Shown: positions 5,400 through 26,666, counted from the stretch's first letter. The stretch is DNA of 64,000 nt from Eubacteriales bacterium (GCA_045657225.1 JAZOSR010000035.1:20953-84952), one strand, 5' to 3'. Made by a program: numbers and translations. The notes: a model not told the origin generated them from the letters alone.

Positions 5400-5446
5400 A
5401 ATTTAATCATAAATTCCCACGCACACGCGCATATACGAGGTGTAAT

Positions 5447-6661
5447 ATGAAATATTTAGTTTTAATACCCGATGGCATGGCTGATGAGCCTATCGCTTCC
5501 CTGCAAGACAAAACCCCCATGGAGGTGGCAAAAAAGCCCAACATGGACGCGCTTGCAAAAACGGCATTGGTCGGCACGGTGTCAAACGTGCCCGCCGATA
5601 TGGTGCCCGAGAGCGATACTGCCAATCTTGCTATTCTTTCTTACGATCCCAAGATCTTTTCCAAGGGGCGCTCTCCCCTTGAGGCGGTCAGCATGGGCAT
5701 TGAAATGCAGCCCGATGAAACGGCGTACCGCTGCAACGTCGTGACCCTTTCCGACAACGGCGAGGATTACGAGGACAAGATCATTCTTGACCACAGTGCC
5801 GATGAGATCACAACGGCAGAGGCGGACGTTTTAATTCGCGCCGTGCAGGAAAAATTCGGCAACGATCTCCGTCACTTTTATACGGGTATCAGCTACCGTC
5901 ATTGTCTCATTAAAAAGAACGGCAACGACCGCTATCCCTTCATGCGCCCCCACGATATTCTCGGCAAGCGCATTGGCGAGTATCTGCCCGAAAAGACAGG
6001 CGACGGCAAGGAATTTTACGATCTGATGCGTGAGAGCTTTGATCTTCTCAATCACCACCCCGTCAACGAGGCAAGACGCGCAAGAGGACTTAAGCCCGCC
6101 AACTCGATTTGGTTCTGGAGCCCCGGCAAAAAGCCGCAGCTTCCCTCCTTTAGCGAAAAATGGGGGGTGAAGGGCGCCGTGATTTCTGCCGTTGACCTCA
6201 TCAAGGGCATCGGTCTTTGCGCCGGCATGCGCTCGATCGACGTTGAGGGCGCTACCGGTAATGTGCACACAAATTACAAGGGTAAGGCAGACGCCGCGAT
6301 CTCCGCTTTTGCCGAGGGCTATGAGCTCGTTTACGTGCACGTGGAGGCACCCGACGAGTGCGGACACCGTGCCGAGCTTGAAAACAAGGTATTGTCGATC
6401 GAGCTCATCGACCGTGATATACTCGGTCCCGTGGTTGAATACCTGAAAAGCACGGGCGAGGATTTCAAGGTGATGCTCCTGCCCGATCACCCCACGCCGA
6501 TCCGTGCGCGCACGCACACGATCGACCCTGTTCCCTTCTTCATTTACGCATCCGACGCGGTGCTTGAGGGCGTTGAGAGATTCAATGAGAAAACCGCTAC
6601 CGCCAAGAATAATTATCTTGCAAACGGCTATAAACTGATGGGGATACTGACCGAAAAATAA
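5447..6661 (+). CDS. apgM: cofactor-independent phosphoglycerate mutase family protein (archaeal ApgM type; alternative role as non-canonical homoserine kinase possible)
   Basis: 404 aa; MKYLVLIPDGMADEPI...KTPMEVAKKPNMDALA N-terminus and HVEAPDECGH metal-site motif typical of the ApgM/COG3635 family. Confidence 0.85.
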   Translation: MKYLVLIPDGMADEPIASLQDKTPMEVAKKPNMDALAKTALVGTVSNVPADMVPESDTANLAILSYDPKIFSKGRSPLEAVSMGIEMQPDETAYRCNVVTLSDNGEDYEDKIILDHSADEITTAEADVLIRAVQEKFGNDLRHFYTGISYRHCLIKKNGNDRYPFMRPHDILGKRIGEYLPEKTGDGKEFYDLMRESFDLLNHHPVNEARRARGLKPANSIWFWSPGKKPQLPSFSEKWGVKGAVISAVDLIKGIGLCAGMRSIDVEGATGNVHTNYKGKADAAISAFAEGYELVYVHVEAPDECGHRAELENKVLSIELIDRDILGPVVEYLKSTGEDFKVMLLPDHPTPIRARTHTIDPVPFFIYASDAVLEGVERFNEKTATAKNNYLANGYKLMGILTEK

Positions 6662-9240: not shown

Positions 9241-10725
9241 ATGAAATTCCAAAGCACACGCGATCAAAGCGCTGCCAAATTCAGTGCGGCACAGGTCATC
9301 AAGCAGGGTCTTGCCGCAGACGGCGGTCTTTTCGTGCCCGAAGAGATCCCCGCGCTTACCGAAACCGAGATCAAAGCACTTTGCACCATGGATTATCCCG
9401 CACGCGCGGCAGAGATCCTTGGTAAATTTCTTACCGATTATAGCAAAGAGGAGCTTCTTGCAGACTGCCGCGCGGCGTATGCCCCCGCATCCTTTGTCGG
9501 TGGTGCCGCCCCCCTTCACGCCTTGCAGGATCATCTTCAAGTAATGGAGCTTTGGCACGGTCCTACCGCCGCTTTTAAGGATATGGCGTTGCAGATCATG
9601 CCTCGCCTACTCTCCCGCGCGCTCATCAAAACGGGCGAGGAGCGCACGGCGCTGATTCTGGTTGCCACCTCGGGTGACACGGGCAAGGCGGCTCTTGAGG
9701 GCTACAAGGACATTGACCGCATTCAGATGATGGTCTTCTACCCCGTTGACGGTGTCAGTGCCGTGCAAAAGCTGCAAATGCAAACGCAAACCGGCGACAA
9801 TGTCAACGTAACCGCCATCAAGGGCAATTTTGACGATGCACAAACCGGTGTCAAGCGCATTTTCTCCAGCGAAGAGGTTGCCCGCAAGCTCAACGAAAAG
9901 GGCTATTTCCTCTCCTCCGCTAACTCGATCAACTGGGGACGCCTTGCGCCGCAGATCGTGTATTACGTATCGGCATACTGCGACCTTCTGAATAAGGGCA
10001 CGATCAAGTACGGTGACAAGATCAACGTAACGGTTCCCACGGGCAATTTCGGCAATATTTTCGCCGCTTATCTTGCAAAGCTCATGGGTCTGCCCATCGA
10101 CAAGCTCGTTTGCGCTTCCAACAAAAACAATATTCTCACCGATTTCCTGAAAACCGGCACGTACGACCGCAACCGCGATTTTTATCTCACCATGTCGCCC
10201 TCGATGGATATTCTCATTTCGAGCAATCTTGAAAGACTGCTTTACTTCACTGCAGGTCCCGCGCGCACTGCGGCATATATGAAGGATTTGAACGAAAAGG
10301 GCGTTTATACGGTGGACGAGGAGATCAAAAACGCGATCGACGAGTCCTTTGTCGGTTGCTTTGCCGATGAGCAAGCGACCGCCGCTACCATCAAAAGCAC
10401 GATGGAAAAGTACGGCTATCTCATTGACACGCACACTGCCGTTGCTGTCAGCGCCGCCGAGCAGTATATGAAGGAAAGCGGCGATCAAAAGCCGATGGTG
10501 GTTGCCTCGACCGCAAGTCCTTACAAGTTCGCCTTTGACGTTTATACCTCGCTTTACGATAGTGCCCCCACCTCGTCGCTTGCGGCACTTGATGAGCTGG
10601 CGGCAAAAACCGGCACGGAAATTCCCTATCCTCTTTGCGGTATTGGCGAGCGCAAGGTGCGCTTTACCGACGTTGTTGATGCGGCGGATATGGAACAGGC
10701 AATGCTTGATTACGTTGCCAAATAA
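9241..10725 (+). CDS. thrC: threonine synthase
   Basis: 494 aa; MKFQSTRD start, PLP-lysine motif TAAFKDMALQ, long-form ThrC length. Confidence 0.95.
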   Translation: MKFQSTRDQSAAKFSAAQVIKQGLAADGGLFVPEEIPALTETEIKALCTMDYPARAAEILGKFLTDYSKEELLADCRAAYAPASFVGGAAPLHALQDHLQVMELWHGPTAAFKDMALQIMPRLLSRALIKTGEERTALILVATSGDTGKAALEGYKDIDRIQMMVFYPVDGVSAVQKLQMQTQTGDNVNVTAIKGNFDDAQTGVKRIFSSEEVARKLNEKGYFLSSANSINWGRLAPQIVYYVSAYCDLLNKGTIKYGDKINVTVPTGNFGNIFAAYLAKLMGLPIDKLVCASNKNNILTDFLKTGTYDRNRDFYLTMSPSMDILISSNLERLLYFTAGPARTAAYMKDLNEKGVYTVDEEIKNAIDESFVGCFADEQATAATIKSTMEKYGYLIDTHTAVAVSAAEQYMKESGDQKPMVVASTASPYKFAFDVYTSLYDSAPTSSLAALDELAAKTGTEIPYPLCGIGERKVRFTDVVDAADMEQAMLDYVAK

Positions 10726-10737
10726 AAAGCAACGAAA

Positions 10738-10770
10738 AAGGTTGCTTGCGGTTATTTCGCAAGCAACCTT
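10738..10770. terminator. hairpin between convergent thrC and DUF1540 gene
   Basis: AAGGTTGCTTGCG-GTTATTT-CGCAAGCAACCTT 13-bp stem; weak U-tract. Confidence 0.6.
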
Positions 10771-10786
10771 CTGAAATTAGTTAAGA

Positions 10787-10969
10787 TCAGTTGTTCTTCG
10801 GCTTAAATGTCGCGCATACCGTATCGGTGCTGCAATCGGCGTAGCTGGGGCCAACACTGATCTTTTGAGCGGTGCAGTAGCACTCGCCCTCATGGTATTG
10901 GCAATTTTTGACGTCGCAGGTAATACCTCTGTTGACGTCGTGACAACAGTTATCGTTTCTTTCCATCAT
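10787..10969 (-). CDS. DUF1540 domain-containing Cys-rich small protein
   Basis: 60 aa; ITCDVKNCQYHEGECYCTAQKISVGP pattern characteristic of DUF1540. Confidence 0.8.
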   Translation of the reverse strand: MMERNDNCCHDVNRGITCDVKNCQYHEGECYCTAQKISVGPSYADCSTDTVCATFKPKNN

Positions 10970-11050
10970 GATAGTTCTCTCCTTTCAAAGGATAGTATTA
11001 TTATGCTCGTTTTCTCGTGCTTCATTCTTCAAGAAAGGAGGGGATTTTGT

Positions 11051-11791
11051 ATGGCACTTTTTACCATAGCCGACCTGCATTTTTCAGCCTGCGGCGATCA
11101 TAAAATGGACGTTTTTGGCTCTCGTTGGCAAAACTACACGAAAAAAATATGTGACACGTGGCGCGCGGTTGTCGGTGAGAATGATACCGTGGTGATCCCC
11201 GGTGACATTTCTTGGGGCATGACGCTTAGCGAGGCAAAGGATGATTTTGCCCTGCTCCATTCTCTTCCCGGCAAAAAGCTGATCGGCAAGGGTAACCATG
11301 ATTTTTGGTGGGATACCGCCAAAAAGTGCAATGGCTTTTTTGAAGAAAATGGCTTTGATACGTTGTCGCTTCTTTACAACAACGCATATATTGTAGAAGA
11401 TTTTATCGTTTGCGGCACACGTGGATGGTTTCTTGACAAGGAGCAGCAGGTCACGGTCGGTGAGGTTGATTTTGAAAAAATTTCGGCGCGTGAGCTTGGG
11501 AGATTAAAGCTTTCGCTTGATGCCGCAAAAAAATTGCAAACGGGCGAGCACGAGGACAAGGAAATACTTGTTTTTTTGCATTTCCCTCCTAAATGGAAGG
11601 ATTTTGAATTTACCGCTATGCTGGAGCTTCTTTTATCTTATCATGTGAAGCGCTGCTATTTCGGGCATATTCACGGTCTTTACGGAGCGGAGCCGATTGT
11701 GCGGTATGGCGCGCTTTCGGGCCGTCTTATCTCGTCCGATTTTTTAAATTTCATTCCCCACAGAATATTTTCTGCCGAAAACGCCTTATAA
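11051..11791 (+). CDS. metallophosphoesterase (calcineurin-like phosphoesterase family)
   Basis: Start moved to ATG 11051 (SD AGGAGGGG). Motifs IADLHFS, PGDISWG, GNHDFWW, FLHFPP, GHIHG in canonical order. Confidence 0.85.
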   Translation: MALFTIADLHFSACGDHKMDVFGSRWQNYTKKICDTWRAVVGENDTVVIPGDISWGMTLSEAKDDFALLHSLPGKKLIGKGNHDFWWDTAKKCNGFFEENGFDTLSLLYNNAYIVEDFIVCGTRGWFLDKEQQVTVGEVDFEKISARELGRLKLSLDAAKKLQTGEHEDKEILVFLHFPPKWKDFEFTAMLELLLSYHVKRCYFGHIHGLYGAEPIVRYGALSGRLISSDFLNFIPHRIFSAENAL

Positions 11792-11798
11792 TTAATAT

Positions 11799-11813
11799 AT
11801 TTTGTAGATATTT
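11799..11813 (+). repeat. left copy of 15-bp direct repeat ATTTTGTAGATATTT (candidate attL / element end)
   Basis: Exact match to 26574-26588; continues cGCAAA vs tGCtAAA. Confidence 0.8.
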
Positions 11814-11841
11814 CGCAAATGTCAACCCCCTATTTTAGAAA

Positions 11842-12900
11842 TTAAGCAAATTTTTTTATGCCGAGGGTGGAGAGCTCGGCGTGGAAGCGTTCTCTTGCGG
11901 TGTCCCAATTAAAGAGCTGGCGGGGCATATCGTTAAGATAATCGCATGCCTCGGCTATCTCATTATCGCTATAATTGGCTATGGGAACGCCCTTTTTAAT
12001 GAAGCGGCGGAGGATCCTATTTTGGTTCTCGTTGCTCCCTCGTTCAGAACTGCAATACGGATGGCAATAAAAGACCGACGTGCGGACGGAATTACCTCTC
12101 CTCGATAATTCCATCCTGCGCCAGTCTGCAAACTCGCTGCCATTGTCACAAGTGATCGTCTTGAAGATCTTACGAAATTTAGTGATACCGAGCTGTTTTT
12201 CGAGCTTATCCAGGACGGCGACGGTGGAGGCGGCACTTTTATCCGTCGCACGAAAAACAAGCTCAAATCGCGTTTTTCGCTCCGTTAAGACCAACAACGT
12301 ATTACCGTGCCGTTTTGTGCCTATGACGCTATCAAGCTCCCAATGACCAAATTCCTCACGCTGCAGCACGTGCGGCGGACGCAGATCAATACAAGTACCG
12401 CGAGGTGGATTTTTTACCTTTTCCACCTTGCGGTATTTTCTTTTTCTCATGCCGCGGCAAACGAGATCCTTATTGGTGAGGCGGCGGAAATATCCCTTGT
12501 CGATATAGTGATAAAGCGTTGTGACACAGATCTGTGTTTTCACCGGGATCTGTTCACGTCTGATCGTTGCGAGAGCGACTGCCGGGGAGAGCTTGCGCTT
12601 AAGGATCAGCTCCTCGATCGTGCGGAGGGTATCGTGATCATTGCTGATCTTTGGCTGCGCTCCCCGGGCCTCTTTATTGAAATCTGCGTTTCTTTGTGCC
12701 AGATCTGCACTATATTTCTTTGTTTCGGTCCAATCATGATTACGATGCATGTAATAACCGCGTTTCAGCTCGTAATAGATTGCCGGATTAGAATAGCCGA
12801 GGATCTGTGAGATTTTTACGGCATTCAAATGAAGCACATTATACATGCGCTCGATCGTCTTTCTTACCTCATACGTCATTCGTTTGTAACCCATTGTCAA
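11842..12900 (-). CDS. IS30-family DDE transposase
   Basis: 352 aa; N-terminal HTH, then GHWELDSV (D), ITCDNGSEF (D), SERGSNENQNRILRRFIKKG (E) - the IS30 DDE spacing and motifs. Confidence 0.92.
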   Translation of the reverse strand: MTMGYKRMTYEVRKTIERMYNVLHLNAVKISQILGYSNPAIYYELKRGYYMHRNHDWTETKKYSADLAQRNADFNKEARGAQPKISNDHDTLRTIEELILKRKLSPAVALATIRREQIPVKTQICVTTLYHYIDKGYFRRLTNKDLVCRGMRKRKYRKVEKVKNPPRGTCIDLRPPHVLQREEFGHWELDSVIGTKRHGNTLLVLTERKTRFELVFRATDKSAASTVAVLDKLEKQLGITKFRKIFKTITCDNGSEFADWRRMELSRRGNSVRTSVFYCHPYCSSERGSNENQNRILRRFIKKGVPIANYSDNEIAEACDYLNDMPRQLFNWDTARERFHAELSTLGIKKFA

Positions 12901-13065
12901 GTGCTCCTTTCACCAAAAAGGCGGAAGGCGGTGGGGCGGCGCCGGCTAACCCGCCTTGGCGCGCGCCCCACACTCGCCATTCCGCCCACTCTTTTGTTTG
13001 AAATTCCTTTTGTCCCTGTAGCCAGACCCTTGACAATCGGGTGCTTTTGCGATCTCTCCCACAGA

Positions 13066-13197
13066 TGAAAATAAGCCCGAAAGGAGGTGATAAGATGGGA
13101 TACTTACGTATATGCAACTGGATCTGCACTCACAGCCAAATGATTGTTGATCTAATTGCAAAGATGCTCGTCATCTTATAAACCCTTACGGGCTTGT
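13066..13197 (-). ncRNA. candidate cis-antisense (antitoxin-like) RNA A; ends approximate
   Basis: Predicted start about 7 nt downstream of the antisense -10; would be fully complementary to the 28-codon ORF and its SD; a weak hairpin plus U-rich run (CCTTTCGGGCTTATTTT) lies opposite the SD region. Confidence 0.4.
13095..13181 (+). CDS. 28-aa peptide, candidate type I toxin (copy A): MGYLRICNWICTHSQMIVDLIAKMLVIL
   Basis: Strong SD AAGGAGGTGATAAG before ATG; same-length homologous ORF at 18009-18095 with several synonymous third-position differences; followed by a 9-bp-stem hairpin. Confidence 0.55.
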   Translation: MGYLRICNWICTHSQMIVDLIAKMLVIL

Positions 13198-13203
13198 GGG
13201 ATT

Positions 13204-13232
13204 ATTATATCACACAAGCCCCTTCTTGTCAA
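13204..13232 (-). promoter_or_regulatory. consensus antisense promoter TTGACA-17-TATAAT convergent on peptide ORF A
   Basis: Minus strand: TTGACA (13227-13232), 17-nt spacer, TATAAT (13204-13209); the -10 lies in the loop of the hairpin after the ORF stop. Conserved in copy B. Confidence 0.65.
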
Positions 13233-13649
13233 GCCTTGGGGTGGAAAACCTTATCCGCGGTTTTCCCCAACACCACACCGTGGTGTCGGTGCCCCTTTCC
13301 CTGCGAGGTGTTTCATAACGCTCTCGCAAACTCAAAAGTGGGGTATATAACGGTTTTTCTAACTTTTCTCTGACACGCGGGGAGAAAACTTAAAAAAGCC
13401 GTTACATCTTCCCGAGGTCTAAACGACCTCGTTTTGATTTTACTCACTCGTTATGTAGCTCCGCTATCAAGGAAGTGAAGGCAAGGCGCAAGCGCCTTAC
13501 TTTCACTTCCCATTTCCATTTTTGGGGAGGCGCCGTCTGCGGACGGCGGCGCGGAGTTGGTTGCCGCGTACGTTCATCAACAGCGACCGGGGGCGGCTGA
13601 ATACCCCCGGGGTTGCAAAGCCGAACAGCAACGAAGGCAGGTGGAAAGG

Positions 13650-13763
13650 ATGGAGAACGTGAGCTTAAGCGACAAGGCAATACAACGGCTGATCGAGTTT
13701 CTCTCACGTGCCGGGTGGACCGACGCACAGATCCTTGATCTGATCAATTACGTAACGAAATAA
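13650..13763 (+). CDS. hypothetical 37-aa protein (MENVSLSDKAIQRLIEFLSRAGWTDAQILDLINYVTK)
   Basis: SD AGGTGGAAAGG before ATG 13650; followed by hairpin CGAGGAG...CTCCTCG. The 68-aa ORF-track start lies in GC-rich hairpin DNA and is unlikely. Confidence 0.5.
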   Translation: MENVSLSDKAIQRLIEFLSRAGWTDAQILDLINYVTK

Positions 13764-13919
13764 AAAATACCCGAGGAGCCCTAACTCCTCGAGTATTCCA
13801 CATATTGCAGATGGGGTGCGAGCCTGCCCGCATCCTGTCTGCCAACCCTGTATGCACAGTATACCACAAACAAATCTATTTGTCAAGCCCCGGGTTTTCC
13901 CGGGCGGAAAGGAAGAAAA

Positions 13920-14102
13920 ATGACCTATCAAGACCTGATCAGCGCCGGCATTGAGATCCAATGCCAAACCGTACTTTACTACTACGACTATAACCGGGAT
14001 AAGCGCGTGCTGCTTTCGCCTGCAGATGCAGCCGGCAAAGAGATCAGATACATGTACGTGGAGGACGACGTGCTTTACATCGAAGTGGAGGTGGAGCTAT
14101 GA
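13920..14102 (+). CDS. hypothetical 60-aa protein
   Basis: SD GGAAAGGAAG; stop overlaps next start (ATGA). Confidence 0.6.
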   Translation: MTYQDLISAGIEIQCQTVLYYYDYNRDKRVLLSPADAAGKEIRYMYVEDDVLYIEVEVEL

Positions 14103-14392
14103 ACGAATTCAATTTCAGCGTATTGATGAAGAAATCGCAAAACTACACGCCGAGCAGCTTGATGCACACCTATGCGCAGCAGCACCCGAGCGCAAGCTTT
14201 TGCTATGATCTGAACGGCAAGCCCTATCTGCTCATTGCCAACGTTCGCTATTACTACAAGCATTGGCGCATAATCGCCGTGTCGCCGAACAGCGAGATGG
14301 TAACCGTCTATCTCAACGATCCCCACGCACTTGTGCCTATGCCGGGCACAGAAGGTAATTGGGGTGAAAGACATTGGGGAGGTTTGAAATGA
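14099..14392 (+). CDS. hypothetical 97-aa protein
   Basis: SD GGAGGTGGAG; ATGA overlaps at both ends. Confidence 0.65.
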   Translation: MNEFNFSVLMKKSQNYTPSSLMHTYAQQHPSASFCYDLNGKPYLLIANVRYYYKHWRIIAVSPNSEMVTVYLNDPHALVPMPGTEGNWGERHWGGLK

Positions 14393-14550
14393 TCGAATTA
14401 TGGGTAAATTATTGGAGCGGAGATTTTTTCGTAGGACATTTTCCAGATATTACATCAGCTCAAAAATATTTTGAAGATCACAAGGAACGTTTTAGAGATT
14501 ATAGAGGTGAAAAATTTGGTTTCCCATACGCTACTCCATTTTTGCGCTAA
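14389..14550 (+). CDS. hypothetical 53-aa protein (MIELWVNYWSGDFFVGHFPDITSAQKYFEDHKERFRDYRGEKFGFPYATPFLR)
   Basis: Below ORF-track cutoff; found by reading on from the ATGA overlap at 14389-14392; SD GGGGAGG upstream. Confidence 0.55.
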   Translation: MIELWVNYWSGDFFVGHFPDITSAQKYFEDHKERFRDYRGEKFGFPYATPFLR

Positions 14551-14649
14551 AACAAAACATAATAGGGGGCGGTTTAACCGTCCCCGCCACCTCAAGCCCT
14601 ACTCCCTACCACTACCACATAGGGTGCTCTGCACCCGGAAAGGATTTTT

Positions 14650-14910
14650 ATGACAGAAGCTACTTACTACACCATCATACTTGTTTGTGTATCTGCTTTT
14701 GCCATTTTACATGGCATTAACTGCTTTATTCAAAGTCGAAAATATTACCAACTCACCATAGATGGTGAAACATTTCAAGTAGTATTTAATTTAGATATAA
14801 GCCGGTGGAGCAAAACCGTTACTTTCACAGATCTAAATTACATAGAGCACACTATGACTTACAACAGAATTGAACTCTATGAGATTAAGCTAAAGGAGCA
14901 TGACCAATGA
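14650..14910 (+). CDS. hypothetical 86-aa membrane-anchored protein
   Basis: SD GAAAGGA; N-terminal hydrophobic segment YYTIILVCVSAFAILHGINCFI. Confidence 0.6.
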   Translation: MTEATYYTIILVCVSAFAILHGINCFIQSRKYYQLTIDGETFQVVFNLDISRWSKTVTFTDLNYIEHTMTYNRIELYEIKLKEHDQ

Positions 14911-15002
14911 AATACTTCCTCCGTGCGCTTGAGATCCTCGGGATCCTCTCCTTCTCGCTTTTTGTGGGCTATCTGCTCTTTCTGATGGTCTACATCGTGT
15001 GA
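14907..15002 (+). CDS. hypothetical 31-aa hydrophobic micro-protein (MKYFLRALEILGILSFSLFVGYLLFLMVYIV)
   Basis: ATGA overlap with the preceding ORF; single predicted TM helix; ends 9 nt before the NTPase ATG. Confidence 0.5.
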   Translation: MKYFLRALEILGILSFSLFVGYLLFLMVYIV

Positions 15003-15011
15003 GGTGCTGCC

Positions 15012-17177
15012 ATGCTCAAGAAGCTCAAGCAAATCAACTACCGTCATTTCATTGCCGCCGGGCTGGTGCTCGGCTCGGCGGCGCTATGTGTGTTCGTTTA
15101 CAAGTACCCTTTGGTGCGTTTGTGGGAAAGCATCATTGCCTTCATCCGCGCGATCGCGTATTCCTTCATGGATCTCCTCGAGCTCCCCGAGGCGCCCGAG
15201 ATCACCCAGACCGTCAACGACTTTTCTCGGGTAGACCTCACCGGTGCGATCGGCATTGACGTTGACGAGCTCTGGCGGCGGCTCTCCGGGGTATGGTCCG
15301 AGATCTTTGTGTGGGAGCATTTTCAATACTATCTGATCTTCCTCTTGTGGCACTTCACGCGCTTCATGTATTACAGCTGCATTATCCTCTTGATCGGCGT
15401 CGTTGCCATCATTCCCGTCGTGCTTACGTGGGACGATATCAACAACGACTACAACCAGGATACCGTGCCCCTTGTGCTATTCAAGCGCTTTGTGGCAGCA
15501 CCCTGCAGGCGCGTGTTCACGTGGCTTCGGGATCTCCTGGTGTTCTTCCGTAGCTCACGATATTGGAGCTGGTTCGTGTTCGTGTGGCTCCTGAACTTCG
15601 GCGTGTTCTCGGTGGCGATCTCGTTCCTTGCCTATTACTTTTGGGCGCTGACCGCCTTTGATCTCTCCACCTTCGGCGTGCAGCTCGTCAAGCTGGCGGC
15701 GGATCTCTTGCTTATGCTGAACACGTTGCCATGGTACGCCTGGGCGGTGATCTTCGCACTCTTGTGGGATCTGTGGCGCCACCGCATTGCCGACGATAAG
15801 ATGCAGCACATGGAAGCACAAAACAAAGGGATGCTGAGCGAGATGCCCATGTGTGCCTTCGTAACGGCTCCGCCGCGTACCGGCAAGACCACGCTGATCA
15901 CCTCCATGGCGATCTCCTACGCCGCCATGTTTCGCCACAATGCCCTCGAGCTCATGACCGGGAACATGCACAAATATCCGCGCTTCCCCTGGATCAACTT
16001 TGAGCTCGATCTCAAGGACGCGATCAGAGCGCACTTCGTTTACAACCTCTATACCGCAAGGGAATGGGTCCGCACGTGGTGTGCCGGCTTCCTTGAGGAT
16101 CCTTGCCGGCAACGGCTGTGGGATTACAACATAGACCTCTATCCGACGGAATACAACGATCACCTTACCGTCACGCCGATCTGGAGAGCACTCGAGAACT
16201 ACGCCCAGGAGTTTTTTATCTACTTCATGCAAACCTCTATCCTGGTGTCTGCCTACTCGATCCGCGAGGACTTTATCTTTATTGACGAGGGGAACTTCCC
16301 GATCGTTGACACCAACTTCTTTGCGCGTGATCCCGCTGCCATCGAGGAGGACAGCAGCTACGCGCACGTCATCGACTACGACATGCTGCGTCTTGGCAAA
16401 AAAATGCTGGAGGACAACCCCAATATAGGCGCCCTCGAATTCGGCGTCGTGCTGATCCCGGAGGTAGACAAGGAGCGCAAGAACGATCTGCGTTTGCGCG
16501 AGCTGAAGCTAAAGGACGACGTCTGCACCCAAAAGAACGACCTATTTAACGAATGGATGAAGATGGCGGGGCAATCTGCCATGGTGGAGAATTTCTGCTT
16601 TTTGCGTATTCTTTCGGATGCACAACGGCCATCCTCCTGGGGCGCGGATGCGCGCGAGCTTTCGATCGTCTTGCACATTGACAAGAAGGGCGACGCTGCC
16701 AACGCCTTGCCGCTCTTCTGGGTGGAGAACGGACTTGTCGGCAAATACCTCTCCTGGTGGGATAGTGTATACGTGAACAGTCGCTTCAAATGGGGCAATA
16801 ACCGTCTGATCACGTGGCTGGGCGAGGGGCTCGGCTCCTTCCTTTATAGCTACCTCCTGCGGCGCAACAACGACTACGGCTATTGGCGGCAGAAGATCCA
16901 GAGCGAGAGCGGAACCCTTGAGAAAGAAAACCTCGAAGAATACAGCTACACGATCGCACGCAAAAAGGACTACGCCGAGCGCTTTGCCTCCGACCATTTC
17001 AAGTCCTACTCACAAATCCAGACCGCCGAGTGTCACGTGGGCCTCGGTGATCTGCCCGCTTACAACTCAATCTATCCCACGTTTGACGAAATGATCATCC
17101 AAAATTCGCACTTCTGCCGGGAACTCATTCAATACTTTGATATCGTACCGGCAGAGGAGAAAGGAGAAAGCAAATGA
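15012..17177 (+). CDS. polytopic-membrane P-loop NTPase (N-terminal ~270-aa multi-TM domain + C-terminal Walker A/B domain); DNA-translocase/assembly ATPase candidate
   Basis: 721 aa; at least four long hydrophobic stretches in residues 13-255; Walker A APPRTGKT at residues 286-293 (nt 15867-15890); Walker-B-like VVLIPEVDKE; no confident family assignment. Confidence 0.8.
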   Translation: MLKKLKQINYRHFIAAGLVLGSAALCVFVYKYPLVRLWESIIAFIRAIAYSFMDLLELPEAPEITQTVNDFSRVDLTGAIGIDVDELWRRLSGVWSEIFVWEHFQYYLIFLLWHFTRFMYYSCIILLIGVVAIIPVVLTWDDINNDYNQDTVPLVLFKRFVAAPCRRVFTWLRDLLVFFRSSRYWSWFVFVWLLNFGVFSVAISFLAYYFWALTAFDLSTFGVQLVKLAADLLLMLNTLPWYAWAVIFALLWDLWRHRIADDKMQHMEAQNKGMLSEMPMCAFVTAPPRTGKTTLITSMAISYAAMFRHNALELMTGNMHKYPRFPWINFELDLKDAIRAHFVYNLYTAREWVRTWCAGFLEDPCRQRLWDYNIDLYPTEYNDHLTVTPIWRALENYAQEFFIYFMQTSILVSAYSIREDFIFIDEGNFPIVDTNFFARDPAAIEEDSSYAHVIDYDMLRLGKKMLEDNPNIGALEFGVVLIPEVDKERKNDLRLRELKLKDDVCTQKNDLFNEWMKMAGQSAMVENFCFLRILSDAQRPSSWGADARELSIVLHIDKKGDAANALPLFWVENGLVGKYLSWWDSVYVNSRFKWGNNRLITWLGEGLGSFLYSYLLRRNNDYGYWRQKIQSESGTLEKENLEEYSYTIARKKDYAERFASDHFKSYSQIQTAECHVGLGDLPAYNSIYPTFDEMIIQNSHFCRELIQYFDIVPAEEKGESK

Positions 17178-17335
17178 CACAGCACAGCACAGCACAGCAC
17201 AGCACAGCACAGCACACCCTCGAGCGTGACATAAAGGACTATTTCAAGCTGCAGGTCGATCGGGATCCCGACGAGCTCGATCTCACCGAGATCTCCAAAG
17301 ACGTGCTTGAGATTATCAGACGTCATATAAAGTAA
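17174..17335 (+). CDS. hypothetical 53-aa protein with (CACAG)7 repeat in codons 2-13
   Basis: ATGA overlap with NTPase stop; MTQHSTAQHSTAQHTLERDIKDYFKLQVDRDPDELDLTEISKDVLEIIRRHIK. Confidence 0.55.
   Translation: MTQHSTAQHSTAQHTLERDIKDYFKLQVDRDPDELDLTEISKDVLEIIRRHIK
17178..17212 (+). repeat. perfect pentanucleotide tandem repeat (CACAG)x7
   Basis: Counted base by base from 17178 to 17212, followed by CACAC. Confidence 0.95.
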
Positions 17336-17363
17336 TACAATTCAAACGTTTAAATTGTATTAC
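17332..17363. promoter_or_regulatory. 32-nt near-perfect palindrome GTAATACAATT-CAAACGTTTA-AATTGTATTAC (terminator and/or operator upstream of the RHH gene)
   Basis: 11-bp perfect arms; one mismatched pair in the centre; 20 nt before the RHH gene ATG. Confidence 0.6.
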
Positions 17364-17382
17364 ATCCTTGTGAGGAGCGATT

Positions 17383-17619
17383 ATGTATAAACAAAGAGAT
17401 AAGCTAATCAGTATACGCGTCAATAGCAAGCTGTTGGAGCAAGTGAAAAAGATCATCGATGCCAAAACCGAGGTCAGAGAAGGTTGGGGTGCTCGTAAAA
17501 TTTATTACTACCGCGACGAAAAACGTCCCTATGAATATGATAAATTCACCATTGCAGATCTTCTCGAAGAAGCCATGGAAAAATACCTCGAGGAACAAAC
17601 ACCTTCAGCGCAAAAGTAA
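17383..17619 (+). CDS. ribbon-helix-helix (CopG/Arc-like) DNA-binding protein
   Basis: 78 aa; SD GAGGAG; N-terminal KLISIRVNSKLLEQVKKII fits the RHH beta-strand plus helix pattern. Confidence 0.7.
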   Translation: MYKQRDKLISIRVNSKLLEQVKKIIDAKTEVREGWGARKIYYYRDEKRPYEYDKFTIADLLEEAMEKYLEEQTPSAQK

Positions 17620-17667
17620 TACACGGCGCCGGAAATGTAATACACGGCGCCGGAAATGTAATACATC
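17616..17667 (+). repeat. 21-nt tandem direct repeat GTAATACACGGCGCCGGAAAT x2 plus partial third copy (iterons)
   Basis: 17616-17636 and 17637-17657 identical; 17658-17667 GTAATACATC. Confidence 0.9.
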
Positions 17668-17731
17668 ATTCAACGTCTGACAACGTATCACATTTAACCA
17701 GGGTTTTTGTATTACTTTGTGCGATCGCCAT

Positions 17732-17773
17732 ATGTAATACATTGCTGTGAGATCTCACTGCAATGTATTACAT
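17732..17773. repeat. 42-nt near-perfect palindrome ATGTAATACATTGC-TGTGAGATCTCACT-GCAATGTATTACAT
   Basis: Only one mismatched pair; carries two more GTAATAC boxes in inverted orientation. Confidence 0.8.
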
Positions 17774-17974
17774 ACTTAAGCAAACAAAAACAGCCCTCGG
17801 GCATTGCCCGGGGGCTTTTCACACTTTTGTGCATTTTGTATATTCAGAAGATCTATTTTGCGCTCCGATCGCCACGCTGCAGCGCAAGTTTTCTGTGTAT
17901 CTTGCACAACTCTCCCCGGGCTCACCCTAACCTCGTATTCACCCACTTGACACTCACGGGCTTGCATAATCCCC

Positions 17975-18111
17975 GAAAAAGGAAACAAACCCGAAGGGAG
18001 GTGATAAGATGCTATACGTACGTATATACAATTGGGTCAACGCTCATTACCACACGATCCTTGACCTAATTGTAATGCTACTCGCACACTTATAACCCCC
18101 AACGGGCTTGT
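17975..18111 (-). ncRNA. candidate cis-antisense (antitoxin-like) RNA B; ends approximate
   Basis: Starts downstream of the antisense -10; CCCTTCGGG hairpin plus TTTGTTTCCTTTTT run opposite the SD region. Confidence 0.4.
18009..18095 (+). CDS. 28-aa peptide, candidate type I toxin (copy B): MLYVRIYNWVNAHYHTILDLIVMLLAHL
   Basis: SD AGGGAGGTGATAAG; same length and frame as copy A; synonymous differences (AAC/AAT, CAC/CAT, ATT/ATC, GAT/GAC) argue for coding constraint. Confidence 0.55.
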   Translation: MLYVRIYNWVNAHYHTILDLIVMLLAHL

Positions 18112-18117
18112 GTGGTT

Positions 18118-18146
18118 ATTATATCATACAAGCCCAATCCTGTCAA
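18118..18146 (-). promoter_or_regulatory. consensus antisense promoter TTGACA-17-TATAAT convergent on peptide ORF B
   Basis: Minus strand TTGACA (18141-18146), 17 nt, TATAAT (18118-18123); same position relative to the hairpin as in copy A. Confidence 0.65.
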
Positions 18147-18176
18147 GTCCTCACCGGGGAGAGAGCTTTCGATCTA

Positions 18177-18362
18177 TTGACAATTTTCCCCTTTTGTGAT
18201 ATCCTTTTATTGTCACACAATTTCATCACAATCACAGGGGAAACTATCTTTGGTAAAAAGTGTTCCTCTCTTTTTCTCATACCCTTGTGGTTGTGGAATT
18301 GTGTGACAACAATGAGTGGACCACTTTTTCGGTGTGCCTCTCGTTGGAGGCACACTTTTTTA
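18177..18362 (+). ncRNA. candidate ~150-nt small RNA (promoter TTGACA-17-TATCCT to strong intrinsic terminator)
   Basis: TTGACA 18177-18182, TATCCT 18200-18205; terminator GTGTGCCTC-loop-GAGGCACAC (18332-18355) plus T6ATTTT; no SD-preceded ORF inside; contains ATTGTCACACAAT / ATTGTGTGACAA inverted boxes. Confidence 0.45.
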
Positions 18363-18379
18363 TTTTCGACATTTTTCAC

Positions 18380-18408
18380 TTGCACGTGCGCCTGCTTTTC
18401 GCTAAAAT
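18380..18408 (+). promoter_or_regulatory. promoter TTGCAC-17-TAAAAT for the zinc-ribbon/nuclease gene
   Basis: Read from sequence; 28 nt upstream of ATG 18436 (SD GGAGG). Confidence 0.6.
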
Positions 18409-18435
18409 ATTTTTATAAATGCTTGGAGGTTTATT

Positions 18436-19176
18436 ATGGCTGACAAACTTATTTGCCCGATCTGTGGCGAACCAACACGAATCTACATGGGAAACGCACG
18501 CAAGGACCGTCTTTGCGGCAAACATGCCGACATGCTTAAGGCAGGTGATCTGATCCTCGGCGAGGACGGAAAATTCACCCTCAAGGATGCACCAAAGCCG
18601 GAGCTGAAGGAGAGAGCTGCGGCAGAACCGGCAGCTGCTTCTGATCTGACGTGCATTATCTGCGGCGAGCCGAGTAATGGGAAGCATTTTTGTGTGAAAT
18701 GTTATCACAAATACAAAAACAAAATCATTTATCTAAAGATAAAAGATTGCGTAGAATATGAACCACTCGGTTATGAATATGAAAGTGATTTAGTATGCGA
18801 AGATGGTCACATTGTAAAAAGTGAACCCGAACGAAACATTGACAATTGGCTTTTCAATCACGATATTAAACATATTTATGAGAGAACTTATCAAGTAAAC
18901 GAAACCGTGAAATTGCGTCCTGACTGGTGCTTACCGGGTTACATCAAAGATGAAGATGGACGCCCTGTTGATGTTTATGTTGAATATTGGGGAATCGAAG
19001 GCAGTGCAAAATATGAAAATATAAAGAATTATAAACTTCCTATTTACCAACAAGAAGGATTAACGCTAATAAACATCAACGCCGAACAAGACAAACGAGA
19101 TATAAGTGCAGCTCTTGATTGGAAAGTTTGGAACAAGAAAAATATCAAACCCTATCGAATCAATTTTCTTAAATAA
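18436..19176 (+). CDS. double zinc-ribbon protein with C-terminal PD-(D/E)xK-like nuclease domain
   Basis: 246 aa; CPICG...CGKH and CIICG...CVKCYH motifs; C-terminal SEPERNIDNWL...YERTY...RPDWCLP...VYVEYWG...Y...K...Y resembles the restriction-endonuclease-like module seen at the N-terminus of some UvrD/helicase IV-like proteins (from memory). Confidence 0.75.
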   Translation: MADKLICPICGEPTRIYMGNARKDRLCGKHADMLKAGDLILGEDGKFTLKDAPKPELKERAAAEPAAASDLTCIICGEPSNGKHFCVKCYHKYKNKIIYLKIKDCVEYEPLGYEYESDLVCEDGHIVKSEPERNIDNWLFNHDIKHIYERTYQVNETVKLRPDWCLPGYIKDEDGRPVDVYVEYWGIEGSAKYENIKNYKLPIYQQEGLTLININAEQDKRDISAALDWKVWNKKNIKPYRINFLK

Positions 19177-19180
19177 GACC

Positions 19181-19214
19181 AAGGAGCTCGCCCAACTGGG
19201 CGAGCTCCTTTTGT
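19181..19214. terminator. bidirectional terminator between convergent genes
   Basis: AAGGAGCTCGCCC-AACT-GGGCGAGCTCCTT 13-bp stem, T-rich after. Confidence 0.8.
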
Positions 19215-19415
19215 TCATCGGAATTTTCTTCCGGCATTTTTAATGCCGAGATAATCCGCTTGTCCTGCCTTAATATGTGTTCCAAAGTGACTTCTTAGCA
19301 TAGCTTCCGATTCTCCATATTGATGAGCAGCAATACCAACGCCAATCCAATATGCACGACGTTGATCCGCAGAATACCTTTTTTTACTTTTGTAATTTTT
19401 TCTTGCTTTTGCCAT
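19215..19415 (-). CDS. hypothetical basic 66-aa protein
   Basis: SD AAAAGGAG 8 nt upstream of ATG; no family recognised. Confidence 0.65.
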   Translation of the reverse strand: MAKARKNYKSKKRYSADQRRAYWIGVGIAAHQYGESEAMLRSHFGTHIKAGQADYLGIKNAGRKFR

Positions 19416-19446
19416 AATTTTTCTCCTTTTATTTTTTAAAATAGGG

Positions 19447-19548
19447 TTGACAAATACCCGACTTTCGGATATACTATTAATGAGCTTGATTCTTCAAGCG
19501 CCGACTTGTGTCGGATAGATGGGGGAGAAAATCCCCCTTTTTTATTTT
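19447..19548 (+). ncRNA. candidate ~65-nt small RNA, antisense to the junction of two minus-strand genes
   Basis: Consensus-like promoter TTGACA (19447-19452)-17-TATACT (19470-19475); terminator GGGGGA-GAAAA-TCCCCC (19521-19537) plus T6ATTTT; internal CCGA..TCGG hairpin. Confidence 0.55.
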
Positions 19549-19997
19549 CGCCCTTTCATAGTTCTTAATCTTTTTCGGTTTGATTTCCCGTTTTTTCCGG
19601 AAATCAAATCTTTTTTTATGTTATTAACGTCCTTGATGGACATTTCGCTTGAAACACCCTTTCTTACAAATTTATGCCCTAATTTAATAGGTGCATCAGA
19701 ATCATCTAAAGTAAGAACAACCGGTCTATATTTTGATTTTCCCGATTGATAATTAGGCAATGCTTTCCCAGAAGACGTTCCAAGTTTAACAAGTGCCAAT
19801 TCATCAAAACGATTGCTGTCAACTACAACCGTTTTGCGATAGTTACCTTTTCCTTCATATCCAGGCTTACGATAGTTTTTTTGCCCTTTAAAATATTCAT
19901 CACGAGTATGTATAATAGTGCCATTAGGAATATTTCTCGAAACATTACGTTTAGGTTTTCCCGGATAATTTGATTTTTTGTTTGCCGTAAATATCAC
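19542..19997 (-). CDS. hypothetical very basic 151-aa protein
   Basis: Open frame with GTG start (SD AAGGAG abuts the start codon, so the exact start is uncertain); Lys/Arg/Gly/Asn-rich; no family recognised. Confidence 0.6.
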   Translation of the reverse strand: MIFTANKKSNYPGKPKRNVSRNIPNGTIIHTRDEYFKGQKNYRKPGYEGKGNYRKTVVVDSNRFDELALVKLGTSSGKALPNYQSGKSKYRPVVLTLDDSDAPIKLGHKFVRKGVSSEMSIKDVNNIKKDLISGKNGKSNRKRLRTMKGRK

Positions 19998-20078
19998 TCC
20001 TTTTGTTCAACTTGCTCTATCAGAGTGCCGTAGCTGCAGCGCGATCGCGCCGAGCTGCGGCACTCTTTGTTTTAAGAA

Positions 20079-22025
20079 TTATTCATTCTTATTTTCATTA
20101 TGTTTTCGGCTCTCTTTGTCCGCTCGTCTATCTCGTCGTCGCTGGCGTACTGCTGAATTTGTTGCACTGCACAAACGAATCACAGGAGGTAAAAAGAAAA
20201 TTGCCAAGATAATCAAAGCAATAATCAACATTAAAAAAACGATTTTCTTAATTGCTCCTTTTAATGCATCCAAAATATCCTGCCATAAGGAACTAGGTGT
20301 TTTTCCTACCCCCAAATCACCAACTATATCATATACAATACCATCACCAAAGCTATTTACGGTATTACTGACGGTAGGAATGACCACAGTGCCTCTTTTA
20401 CTTGTAAAAGCGATATGAGCAATAGATACGTTCAGCATCGCGCTTTTTTCGATGCTGTAACCAACGATAGGTCCTATATAAACCTGATCCATTTCCCATA
20501 CATCCTGAAGCAGTGTACAGCGGTAATCCGCAATTGCATAACGCAAAATTACAACCACCTCATCATTCATTGCAGCTTCTGCACAAACTTTAGAAAAGGC
20601 ATCAAGATCACAAGCATTGATAAAAAGGTTTTTGCTATATTCTGCATATTCACTTTGTAAAATTACACTGTAACTAACCGGGTTCTCAATGACCTCTATT
20701 TTTTTGCACTCTTTTAAGAAATCCTCCGTTAAATAAACGTCTTTATCGCCAAAAAGTCTTTGCCAAAAATTCGGTTCATATTTTCCGTGCGACATTTCAT
20801 AGGTTTCCAAATTGAACAAATCCTTATCGGTATAATCAATATCTAAGTTTCTCCTATACTCTGTATAGAGTGCGGATGCGTCAATACCCTTTGCAACCTG
20901 ATCCTTATAAAGCTTCTCCAACTTCTCTGAAGTAAAAGCTGTCATTTGACTCAAATCGCCCAAATCAAAATCCTCGGGTATGGCGTTGCTTTCGATTAAG
21001 TAAGCCAAACGTTCATAAATAAGAGCGTTTCTATAATCATCAAAAATGTTTTCCTTATCCGTATAAATCCAATCGGCATAATGATATCCTCCACTAAGAG
21101 GAATTTCTTCTTTTATAAATTTATCACCCGCCACCAAATCCATTACGTCAGTATCCTCTGTAATTTTTTGACCGTTTTGAATCATATTACGTGTAACATC
21201 ATCAAAAACGCCTTCACGTGTCACGATAATCGGTGTCAGTTTTACAGAATCATAGCTCGCGCGAATGGAAGAAATATATCCGTATCGCTCCAAAACACTT
21301 TTTTTTACCTTAAAATAAACCGAATGGATTTCATAATGGTCATATTCATCGGAAAGATTACCGTCAACGGTTTTGCCGGCGTTCGGGCTCACCCACGTAG
21401 TATCGTACAGCTTAATTGGCAAAACCTCGCCGTCGCGCACCTCGCAATTCAAGCTTTTATCGAAATCATATCCCGTAAAGATATACATACGGGATATCAC
21501 AAACTCCTGAATCTCGCCCTCTTTTGAAAGAAAAATGCCGGGAATATTATACACACGCTCGCCGGGATTTTCATGCAGGCTCCAAAGCTGCTTTACCACG
21601 TTGCTACCATACGACGTTACCTTATATTTCAAAAAACGGTTATCATTGCTTTTTGAAGCCAACTCCAGACCGTAAAAGTTATATGCCGCTACCACCATAT
21701 TCAAACCAAACTCTACGTGATCATCCGGAGAATTTTCAAATTTAATGCAACCGGGATTATACAAGTAAATGTAAAAGCCGTAATTTGAAGAATTGGTAAT
21801 GCTTTTAAAGCCTACTTCGGCTACAAAAAGCACCTCCACGTCCGTACGCGATTGATCCACGGGATATTTACTTTGATCAAACGGTTCTCCGTTTATTTTT
21901 AGTTGCGCAAGCTCTTTCATTACCACGCTATCATCCGTTGCCGCATCGACGGCGGCTGATGCGCTCATACAAAACACACTCAGCAACGATAAAAGCGCCA
22001 ACATAAGCGCCAATATTTTTTCCAT
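20079..22025 (-). CDS. secreted protein with N-terminal signal peptide and C-terminal TM anchor plus Arg/Lys tail (adsorption/spike-like topology)
   Basis: Start moved to MEKILALMLALLSLLSVFCMSASA (SD AAAGGAGAAGGG). C-terminus IVFLMLIIALIILAIFFLPPVI then RQRRRDRRADKESRKHNENKNE. Confidence 0.8.
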   Translation of the reverse strand: MEKILALMLALLSLLSVFCMSASAAVDAATDDSVVMKELAQLKINGEPFDQSKYPVDQSRTDVEVLFVAEVGFKSITNSSNYGFYIYLYNPGCIKFENSPDDHVEFGLNMVVAAYNFYGLELASKSNDNRFLKYKVTSYGSNVVKQLWSLHENPGERVYNIPGIFLSKEGEIQEFVISRMYIFTGYDFDKSLNCEVRDGEVLPIKLYDTTWVSPNAGKTVDGNLSDEYDHYEIHSVYFKVKKSVLERYGYISSIRASYDSVKLTPIIVTREGVFDDVTRNMIQNGQKITEDTDVMDLVAGDKFIKEEIPLSGGYHYADWIYTDKENIFDDYRNALIYERLAYLIESNAIPEDFDLGDLSQMTAFTSEKLEKLYKDQVAKGIDASALYTEYRRNLDIDYTDKDLFNLETYEMSHGKYEPNFWQRLFGDKDVYLTEDFLKECKKIEVIENPVSYSVILQSEYAEYSKNLFINACDLDAFSKVCAEAAMNDEVVVILRYAIADYRCTLLQDVWEMDQVYIGPIVGYSIEKSAMLNVSIAHIAFTSKRGTVVIPTVSNTVNSFGDGIVYDIVGDLGVGKTPSSLWQDILDALKGAIKKIVFLMLIIALIILAIFFLPPVIRLCSATNSAVRQRRRDRRADKESRKHNENKNE

Positions 22026-22082
22026 CCCTTCTCCTTTCCACAAGAAGGCCTGCGACCTATCGTCGCACGCCTTCCCCTGTTC

Positions 22083-22568
22083 TTATTCAATTACCGTAAA
22101 GTAAATAAATTTTAACGCCGCGCTATTGAAGCTACCCGTATATTCCATCAGCACAATCGCATATCTACCGGGCGTAAACGTCGGATCGCCACTACCTTCA
22201 TAATTGCTTTCCATATGATCAAACACATTGGTTGCATTGCCGGAACCTGCCCCAAGCAACGTTTCACTCTCGCCATCGCGCAAAGCGCCAACACGCCAAT
22301 AAGCCATACGGTCGGTGAACTCTCCATCACGGTAAACCATTACACGATCAAGCGGATTGAACGTTGTTACGGTAACCAAAATTGGCTCTCCCTCTTTATA
22401 CACATCCTTACTGGTATAAATTGAACGTGTGCGAGGATTGGCCGACACGTTGATGATTGTGCCCTCATCCTTTTGTACGTTTTGCTGCTGCAGCATTTTA
22501 CCTGCCACTAACGTGCCGCCAAACGACAACAGAAGCACAAGAACACACAAGACTATGCGCTTCCACAT
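22083..22568 (-). CDS. hypothetical signal-anchored/secreted 161-aa protein
   Basis: N-terminal hydrophobic segment IVLCVLVLLLSFGGTLVAG; beta-rich remainder. Confidence 0.75.
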   Translation of the reverse strand: MWKRIVLCVLVLLLSFGGTLVAGKMLQQQNVQKDEGTIINVSANPRTRSIYTSKDVYKEGEPILVTVTTFNPLDRVMVYRDGEFTDRMAYWRVGALRDGESETLLGAGSGNATNVFDHMESNYEGSGDPTFTPGRYAIVLMEYTGSFNSAALKFIYFTVIE

Positions 22569-22571
22569 AAT

Positions 22572-23135: not shown

Positions 23136-23261
23136 TTTTTGTTTTCTCCTTTTTTGTTAAAATTTGATTTTTTATACGCCCATCGGGCTACTTGAAACGC
23201 CGGGAAAATACTTGAATTTTTCGCCCTGCTTGCGGGCGGTGCATCATGTTCACCTTCCTTC

Positions 23262-23293
23262 AATGAAAAATGGGTGGGGACGTATCCCCACCC
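23262..23293 (-). terminator. intrinsic terminator after the 101-aa gene
   Basis: Minus strand GGGTGGGGA-TACG-TCCCCACCC followed by ATTTTTCATT. Confidence 0.7.
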
Positions 23294-23372
23294 AAGTTCA
23301 ATGCGCTGTGGGGCAGCGCTATTGACAGATCAGATACACAACCGCCCCCACTGCAATTGTGCTTTTCGGATA

Positions 23373-23678: not shown

Positions 23679-23718
23679 TTTCTTTACCTCTTTTCTTTAT
23701 GTATTTTTTTAGGGAATA

Positions 23719-26414: not shown

Positions 26415-26573
26415 TTTTCGCGGTACCCCCTACGACAGTGTTTTGAAGATCTGTACCCCCCTGTTAGCGGGGGGGCACCGCCCGCCCTCCGCCGCGCTTC
26501 GCGCGGCTTCGAGCGGGCATTTTTCGCCTCTCATTCGCTCCTTTGACTTTCTAAAATAGATTTTAACATTCAA

Positions 26574-26588: not shown

Positions 26589-26600
26589 TGCTAAAAGCTC

Positions 26601-26629: not shown

Positions 26630-26666
26630 ATACTTTGTGAATTTTTCAACTCTTGGAGGACAAAAA

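Follow-up and report, generated by a model that had tools for sequence, protein, structure and literature searches.

What do five very small open reading frames (ORFs), packed head to tail in front of the gene of a large membrane ATPase, encode, and do they act with that ATPase as one unit? This question is raised by a 14.8-kb integrated rolling-circle element (positions 11799–26594, with a direct repeat at 11799 and 26574) of a Eubacteriales bacterium. The element lies in the window, by which we mean the whole stretch of 64,000 nucleotides (nt) that was analysed (GCA_045657225.1, JAZOSR010000035.1:20953-84952), and its ORFs of 60, 97, 53, 86 and 31 codons (o60, o97, o53, o86 and o31) occupy 13920–15002. 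An earlier note, made from the sequence, had described them as a translationally coupled chain feeding into the gene of a nucleoside triphosphatase, the ATPase of this text, and had found the size and topology of the last product to be those expected of a filamentous-phage-type coat or assembly protein, or else of a small spread/transfer membrane protein. We find that the 31-codon gene, which mostly escapes annotation, belongs to the core of hundreds of mobile elements of gut Clostridia and is no less constant than the ATPase itself. The other four genes are a lineage-restricted accessory cassette grafted onto the conserved peptide–ATPase pair. The new point of this analysis is the peptide family itself.

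The five ORFs are genes. They are present head to tail with the sizes given in the earlier note, and the ATGA start/stop overlaps it had listed at 14099, 14389, 14907 and, behind the ATPase gene, 17174 are all in place. Every start has a Shine-Dalgarno (SD) core of 5–7 nt with a spacer of 5–8 nt, and the SD of the ATPase gene (GAGGTG) overlaps the stop codon of o31. The chain is not fully contiguous, with gaps of 99 nt between o53 and o86 and of 9 nt between o31 and the ATPase gene. Starts that overlap or abut the upstream stops, each with its SD core, are the layout expected for translational coupling. The loss of the frames in homologous elements, which the earlier note had named as the observation that would speak against it, was looked for in related loci (numbered L001 onwards); the frames are open there. 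In L086/L087, at 88.6% DNA identity over 13400–15100, all five frames and their overlaps are intact. The ratio of non-synonymous to synonymous substitution rates (dN/dS; Nei-Gojobori, against L086, L003 and L001) is 0.05–0.27 for the five ORFs (o60 0.13–0.16, o97 0.09–0.18, o53 0.05 from 10 differences, o86 0.27, o31 0.10–0.20) and 0.08–0.10 for the ATPase gene. The exact sequences of all five products are contained in the public protein collection.

Short products that match no family, one of which (o53) is known only from two near-identical relatives, might be taken for chance open frames. It is hardly credible that some or all of the micro-ORFs are of this kind, given the SD at every start, the frames kept open in diverged relatives with synonymous change in excess, and the homologs of o60, o97 and o86 that stand in unchanged relative order in L096, at an ATPase identity of only 63%. 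As the earlier note had supposed, no product belongs to a recognised family in Pfam, PHROGs, NCBIfam or PADLOC, and a hydropathy scan bore out its single hydrophobic helix in each of the o86 and o31 products (residues 2–20 in o86). An Rfam scan of 10500–27500 gave sub-threshold matches only. A 407-amino-acid (aa) aminotransferase (P0136) found in the 90% cluster of o53 was rejected as a clustering artefact, its sequence and context being unrelated.

The distribution of the 31-codon gene sets it apart from the rest of the chain. Among about 90 related loci (80 genome loci plus metagenome loci), all but about three carry a gene for a peptide of ~30 residues within 450 nt upstream of the ATPase gene, in most of them as an ORF of ~30 codons whose stop lies at the ATPase start or shortly before it. 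A strict motif scan, which requires G[YH], reported 58 loci, reduced to 57 by the spurious L065; a relaxed scan of the 450 nt upstream of the ATPase recovered the peptide in nearly all the remaining loci. The Gly-Tyr pair is found in these 57 loci, while about ten others substitute Ser, Cys, Asp or Arg for Gly; the pair is present in all 53 aligned copies, for which the scan had required G[YH]. The consensus reads M-K-x-x-K-R, then a hydrophobic stretch, then G-Y-F-I-[FY]-T-G, with a conserved aromatic residue at +4 and a conserved length of ~30. The first ten residues carry a mean net charge of +2.8 and those past Gly-Tyr one of +0.5 (the whole o31 peptide of the window lineage carries +1), and by the positive-inside rule the N-terminus would be cytoplasmic. 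A profile of the 53 aligned copies retrieved 257 clusters at an expect value (E) ≤0.001 among 1.84 billion protein representatives, nearly all of 30–33 aa; its best independent match (P0151) sits 4 nt into a gene for 722 aa, behind which lie a REP_ORF2-G2P gene and an rve integrase. The same 53 copies gave no consistent Pfam or PHROG match to coat, cap (pVI, pVII, pIX, pVIII) or other described families, only scattered single matches at E 3e-4 to 1e-2. Moreover, the divergence of the peptide is correlated with that of the ATPase (Mantel r 0.69, 0 of 999 permutations).

The peptide and ATPase genes share an ATGA in 30 of the 58 loci that were reported; in most others they are ≤9 nt apart. In L077, from the cultured Pumilibacter intestinalis CLA-AA-M10, the two genes overlap. 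An ATGA junction in half of the family, together with the ATPase SD that overlaps the o31 stop, would also suit a mere upstream ORF whose translation brings ribosomes to the ATPase start while its peptide has no function. This is very improbable, as the amino acids are constrained (Gly-Tyr in 57 copies, the aromatic residue at +4, the length, and the dN/dS of o31 given above with saturated synonymous sites), and the gene is conserved even where it lies 150–380 nt from the ATPase gene (L009, L025, L034, L044 and L071).

In L091, L094 and L096 the peptide gene is present in the DNA and missing from the deposited gene calls, so the family is under-annotated. In L095 it is missing from the gene calls, and a motif scan of the DNA also found no copy. 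In three to four relatives (L051, L059, L061 and L092) the peptide is extended at its C-terminus to 113–127 aa, and its gene still ends at the ATPase start. An 'IDGET' domain shared by o86 and the extended peptides of L051, L059 and L061 was considered and found no support in a profile search.

The four genes before o31 behave as exchangeable cargo. The sister element L001 is without exactly 13915–14902: the alignment stops at 13914 and resumes at 14903, with the leader, the ribosome binding site (RBS) and the peptide gene retained, and the same leader RBS serves the peptide gene in L001 and o60 in the window. The view of the chain as coupled into the NTPase gene therefore stands for its layout, which is built for coupled translation, and not for a single functional unit, because four of the five ORFs are variable cargo and the block is missing in L001. 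Homologs of o60 were found only in L003, L086/87 and L096 (54–73% identity), and o97 has only 9 clusters among 5.8 billion proteins. A homolog of o53, there of 57 aa, occurs only in L086/87. Those of o86 keep their position in L086/87 and L096 (phmmer E 1.7e-22), as does a marginal match in L008 (E 0.02–0.04), and o86 is always directly upstream of the peptide gene. Overall, o60, o97 and o86 are confined to the closest subclade and o53 to the two nearest relatives.

The contents of the slot differ among L003, L086, L094, L096, L005 and L095. Two of these, L005 (7669–8601) and L095 (8303–9253), hold an ArdC-type gene (ArdcN plus MPTase-PolyVal), which hints that the slot may collect anti-defence genes. 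Because these sister elements hold ArdC in the same slot, our best guess is that the cargo of the window would serve host interaction or anti-defence. PADLOC, whose library consists of defence and not anti-defence models, gave no match for o60, o97, o53 or o86. The AlphaFold2 (AF2) model of o97 has a mean predicted local distance difference test (pLDDT) of 81 overall and ~90 over residues 1–70; it gave no Foldseek match in PDB at E≤0.001, a best VIA-align Z of 4.8, under the usual noise level, and template-modelling scores ≤0.53 against the atlas, where the rows were unnamed or phage-tail clusters, and no fold was assigned. The ESM Atlas feature search gave no usable match for o97 or o86. The cargo genes are inserted exactly between the operon leader with its RBS and the peptide gene and, linked by their own SDs and mostly by ATGA overlaps, may ride on the ATPase transcript.

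An IS30-type transposase and a Rep_trans initiator (Rep_trans and Rol_Rep_N at 25146–26414) are encoded at opposite ends of the element. On its minus strand lie the genes of a group of secreted or anchored proteins, one of them of 654 aa with a signal peptide and a C-terminal transmembrane (TM) anchor. The ATPase has no Pfam match at E≤0.1 and no PHROG match, and only one record of the phage database matches it. Hydropathy places hydrophobic segments at residues 11–32, 115–144, 185–209 and 218–236, with Walker A past residue 285. Its AF2 model (pLDDT 70) has a helical N-terminal domain of ~280 residues and gave no Foldseek match at E≤0.001 in PDB or BFVD. More than 200 clusters of full-length relatives exist, and relatives are encoded in at least 546 species genomes, mostly of Christensenellaceae, Oscillospiraceae and other Clostridia, with some Anaeroplasmataceae-like lineages. 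The integrase (IS30-type, tyrosine or serine) and the initiator (Rep_trans, Rep_OBD plus helicase, or REP_ORF2-G2P) vary among these relatives, and the ATPase module is therefore the constant part. In IMG/VR, an alignment-based scan found a relative of the ATPase on only 2 of 2.9 million contigs (L098 and L099), and a scan with the single protein found nothing. Standard virus detection does not recognise this family of elements.

In 36 of the 38 loci with a match, the homolog of the 654-aa surface protein is encoded on the same strand as the ATPase and upstream of it, and where the neighbourhood was read (L016, L038, L042, L066, L074, L078 and L093) the order is large protein, peptide, ATPase. 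In the window, L005 and L007 the large protein is inverted and downstream, so the arrangement of the window is derived. The ancestral order is a large secreted, C-terminally anchored protein, then the peptide, then the ATPase.

Taken together, it is rather probable that this is an operon of two layers, in which a core single-pass peptide acts with the ATPase, as a membrane partner or a minor particle protein, and is accompanied by four accessory cargo genes. The region would be the 5′ part of the signature ATPase operon, and o31, translated immediately before the ATPase, would probably be made in a fixed ratio with it. Most likely the two proteins act together in the membrane, where the peptide could be a small subunit or an adapter of a machine that exports or assembles the DNA of the element. 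Perhaps it is instead a minor end protein of a released particle, the role taken by pVI of the Ff phages and Orf7 of Propionibacterium phage B5, which are encoded in a like position.

Several points weigh against this proposal. The link between peptide and ATPase is drawn from constant adjacency and co-divergence only, and linked genes are co-inherited anyway, which makes the Mantel correlation uninformative on binding. The large surface protein of the window itself is on the other strand, the canonical triad being seen only in relatives. The ATPase does not match Zot/pI and aligns with plectrovirus ORF2 at Walker A only, and the analogy with filamentous phages is for that reason one of gene order, sizes and topology. 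Finally, the dN/dS values of the short ORFs come from just 10–40 substitutions per ORF, although all of them agree in direction. A complex prediction, made from the peptide alignment with ATPase residues 1–300, scored 0.07, which is evidence neither of binding nor against it.

The size and topology of the peptide do fit a filamentous-phage-type protein, as the earlier note had proposed. A narrower reading, which makes it the major coat protein of a filamentous virion, is quite unlikely. The peptide belongs to the class of 30–90 aa with a single TM domain used for inovirus structural proteins (Roux et al. 2019, PMC6813254). It is also the only tiny TM protein conserved family-wide, and the element of the window showed no second small TM gene resembling a coat gene. 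Yet its gene overlaps or abuts that of the ATPase, and a terminator scan found none behind it; this coupling without a terminator-like site would imply low, ATPase-like expression instead of the very high level of a coat. Its net charge in the window lineage is low and comes with no basic DNA-binding end, and its ~30 aa compare with 57 aa for the product of the B5 coat gene. The coat proteins of Ff and Pf are also well above 30 aa. Furthermore, some relatives extend the peptide to 113–127 aa with an extra domain, and the position of the gene is that of gVI/orf7, not of a coat gene.

The spread/transfer membrane protein of the earlier note survives as a minority view. It would make the element a non-viral, minimal cell-to-cell DNA transfer system (conjugation- or 'spread'-like), with the ATPase as DNA translocase, the 654-aa protein as adhesin and the peptide as pore accessory. 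ArdC in the slot of L005 and L095 is typical of conjugative elements, and the initiator of the window is a Rep_trans protein, a family that also serves as relaxases in Gram-positive integrative elements. In addition, the N-terminal membrane domain of the ATPase followed by the P-loop recalls coupling proteins, and its near absence from IMG/VR against its wide presence in species genomes points the same way. We nevertheless hold such a transfer element to be unlikely: the ATPase gave no match to FtsK, TraG/VirD4 or type IV secretion systems at E≤0.1, no other conjugation gene was found in the Pfam-annotated neighbourhoods, some relatives carry an initiator of the filamentous-phage type (REP_ORF2-G2P), and the gene order parallels that of filamentous phages.

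The two-layer operon with its peptide–ATPase core also admits a bolder extension, possible although doubtful: the peptide, the polytopic P-loop ATPase and the large anchored surface protein may be the minimal core of an undescribed machine for non-lytic DNA export or virion assembly in gut Clostridia and wall-less relatives, with the peptide as an obligatory structural or pore subunit. If this is true, these elements would constitute a new lineage of viruses or of transfer elements rather than a divergent inovirus.

Table 1. Features of the micro-ORF region of the window, followed by slot contents and extended peptides in related loci (positions in the related loci carry the locus number)
Feature	Position	Strand	Description
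o37	13650-13763	+	37 codons; conserved helical micro-protein at the head of the operon region on the plus strand
Leader between o37 and o60	13764-13886	-	promoter-like site and terminator hairpin
o60	13920-14102	+	60 aa; acidic, cytoplasmic micro-protein, isoelectric point 4.1, net charge -7; accessory cargo
o97	14099-14392	+	97 aa; soluble micro-protein, compact beta-alpha-beta fold in the AF2 model; accessory cargo; ATGA overlap with o60
o53	14389-14550	+	53 aa; soluble micro-protein, ATG start; accessory cargo; ATGA overlap with o97
GC-rich 9-bp hairpin without U-run	14565-14585	+	in the 99-nt gap between o53 and o86
o86	14650-14910	+	N-terminal TM helix and beta-rich domain of ~55 aa; semi-conserved
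o31	14907-15002	+	31 aa; predicted single-pass membrane peptide; core gene; constant neighbour of the ATPase
ATPase gene	15012-17177	+	721 aa; membrane P-loop ATPase; signature gene of the element family
53-codon ORF after the ATPase	17174-17335	+	overlaps the ATPase stop by ATGA; carries a CACAG repeat (repeat family D4)
Slot content, L003			ORFs of 75, 60, 96, 52 and 138 codons
Slot content, L096			ORFs of 59, 75, 96, 45 and 88 codons
Slot content, L094			single ORF of 95 codons
Slot content, L005 and L095			ArdC and other small ORFs
Extended peptide	L051:9658-9999		extra domain, presumably extracellular
Extended peptide	L059:9655-9999		extra domain, presumably extracellular
Extended peptide	L061:9611-9952		extra domain, presumably extracellular
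Extended peptide	L092:9630-10013		extra domain, presumably extracellular

Other features of the region are listed with the chain in Table 1. The small gene o37, with an SD (AGGTG) 6 nt upstream of its start, has homologs in L001, L003, L086/87, L094 and L050 (dN/dS 0.13–0.20). In the leader between it and o60, a near-consensus minus-strand promoter (TTGACA-17-TATACT with TG, 13886–13858) faces a terminator hairpin with a T-run (13799–13764). Both hexamers of this promoter-like site are invariant in five diverged loci, where the flanks are variable, and the two signals together suggest a possible antisense RNA of ~90 nt against the o37–o60 leader. For o53, ORF finding gives an alternative form of 58 aa from a TTG at 14374. 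The hairpin predicted at 14565–14585 sits in the only long gap of the chain, and its stem is conserved in L086 despite an adjoining 24-nt deletion there; its pattern is not that of an intrinsic terminator, and it might mark a cassette junction or affect RNA stability.

Behind the ATPase gene, the 53-codon ORF has homologs in L001 and L096. Its opening CACAG repeat (17174–17216, read as AQHST) is found in L096 as the C-terminal tail of a 112-aa protein (5421–5759); being the start of an ORF in one and the tail of a protein in the other, the repeat moves between reading contexts. A direct repeat of 176 nt (76% identity) lies at 13058–13233 and 17972–18147. It contains a 28-codon ORF with a strong SD, which faces a perfect minus-strand TTGACA-17-TATAAT, and similar peptides are present in L001, L003 and L005.

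The ATPase marks a family of mobile elements that is named in no library and is almost missing from virus catalogues, and the peptide gene gives a second hallmark by which such elements can be found and delimited. With its ~30 codons, often skipped by gene callers, it is a cheap experimental handle, and through the peptide one can test directly whether particles like those of filamentous phages are built by the family. Small genes of host interaction or anti-defence can be sought in the variable slot before the peptide gene. More generally, micro-proteins under the usual annotation cut-offs can be core components.

How do these two layers compare with systems already described? The slot resembles the accessory ('moron'-like) slots of phages and the anti-defence leading regions (ArdC) of conjugative elements in its fixed position, in a content that varies between sisters and in its small, mostly orphan genes. 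Unlike those, the cassette is embedded here in the 5′ end of the ATPase operon, and coupled starts tie the two together.

For the peptide, the closest counterparts by position are pVI of Ff and Orf7 of B5, each a small hydrophobic membrane protein encoded between a large protein with a signal peptide and C-terminal anchor and the assembly ATPase. The Ff order gIII-gVI-gI equals the order large protein, peptide, ATPase, and B5 (NC_003460) has orf6 (485 aa), orf7 (90 aa) and the ATPase gene orf8. The counterparts differ in having 90–112 residues with several hydrophobic segments, against 30 residues and one helix here, and no sequence similarity to the peptide family was found; the ATPase here, whose N-terminal domain is polytopic, is also twice as long as theirs and does not match Zot. 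In B5, genes of 27 and 32 codons are annotated as structural, which sets a precedent for products of ~30 codons. These B5 products, Orf4 and Orf3 (27 and 32 aa), and pVII and pIX of Ff (33 and 32 aa) are likewise hydrophobic single-helix products of ~30 residues without a signal peptide, encoded by overlapping, coupled micro-genes of a rolling-circle element. Their genes, in contrast, precede the major coat gene and not the ATPase gene, no motif is common to both groups, and the Gly-Tyr motif with the basic N-terminus is specific to the peptide family described here.

In the Spiroplasma plectroviruses SpV1-R8A2B, SVTS2 and SVGII3, overlapping TM ORFs of 50–90 codons feed ORF2, a P-loop ATPase with TM segments before Walker A. 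SpV1-R8A2B also has an IS30-family transposase that is 27% identical to that of the window (E 5e-17), the sole match when all proteins of the element were compared with this phage by BLAST. Plectrovirus ORF2 is shorter (~335 aa against 721 aa), and hhalign of a 20-sequence ATPase alignment against the three ORF2 proteins aligned 24 columns around Walker A at a probability of 27%, with no similarity beyond the P-loop. The ORF that precedes ORF2 encodes 67–69 aa in SpV1-R8A2B and SVTS2, and 54 aa at a distance of ~200 nt in SVGII3. In SpV1-R8A2B (L088, 7289–7492) this 67-aa TM protein, ORF10, overlaps the ORF2 start and ends in '...IVGYFK', which recalls the Gly-Tyr-Phe of the peptide family; as neither SVTS2 nor SVGII3 has this ending, it is probably a coincidence.

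Inoviruses are recognised by an ATPase with Zot as its closest Pfam domain and one or two TM domains, by structural proteins of 30–90 aa with a single TM domain, and by a rolling-circle initiator and short genes nearby (PMC6813254). The element has short single-TM proteins (o31 and o86, of 31 and 86 aa), short genes and a rolling-circle initiator. The defining feature, a Zot-like ATPase, was not found in a Pfam search at E≤0.1, and the ATPase has four hydrophobic segments within residues 11–236 and not one or two TM domains. Since the ATPase has no Zot match, we do not assign the element to the inoviruses; by analogy, its module would nonetheless work like the assembly module of a filamentous phage.

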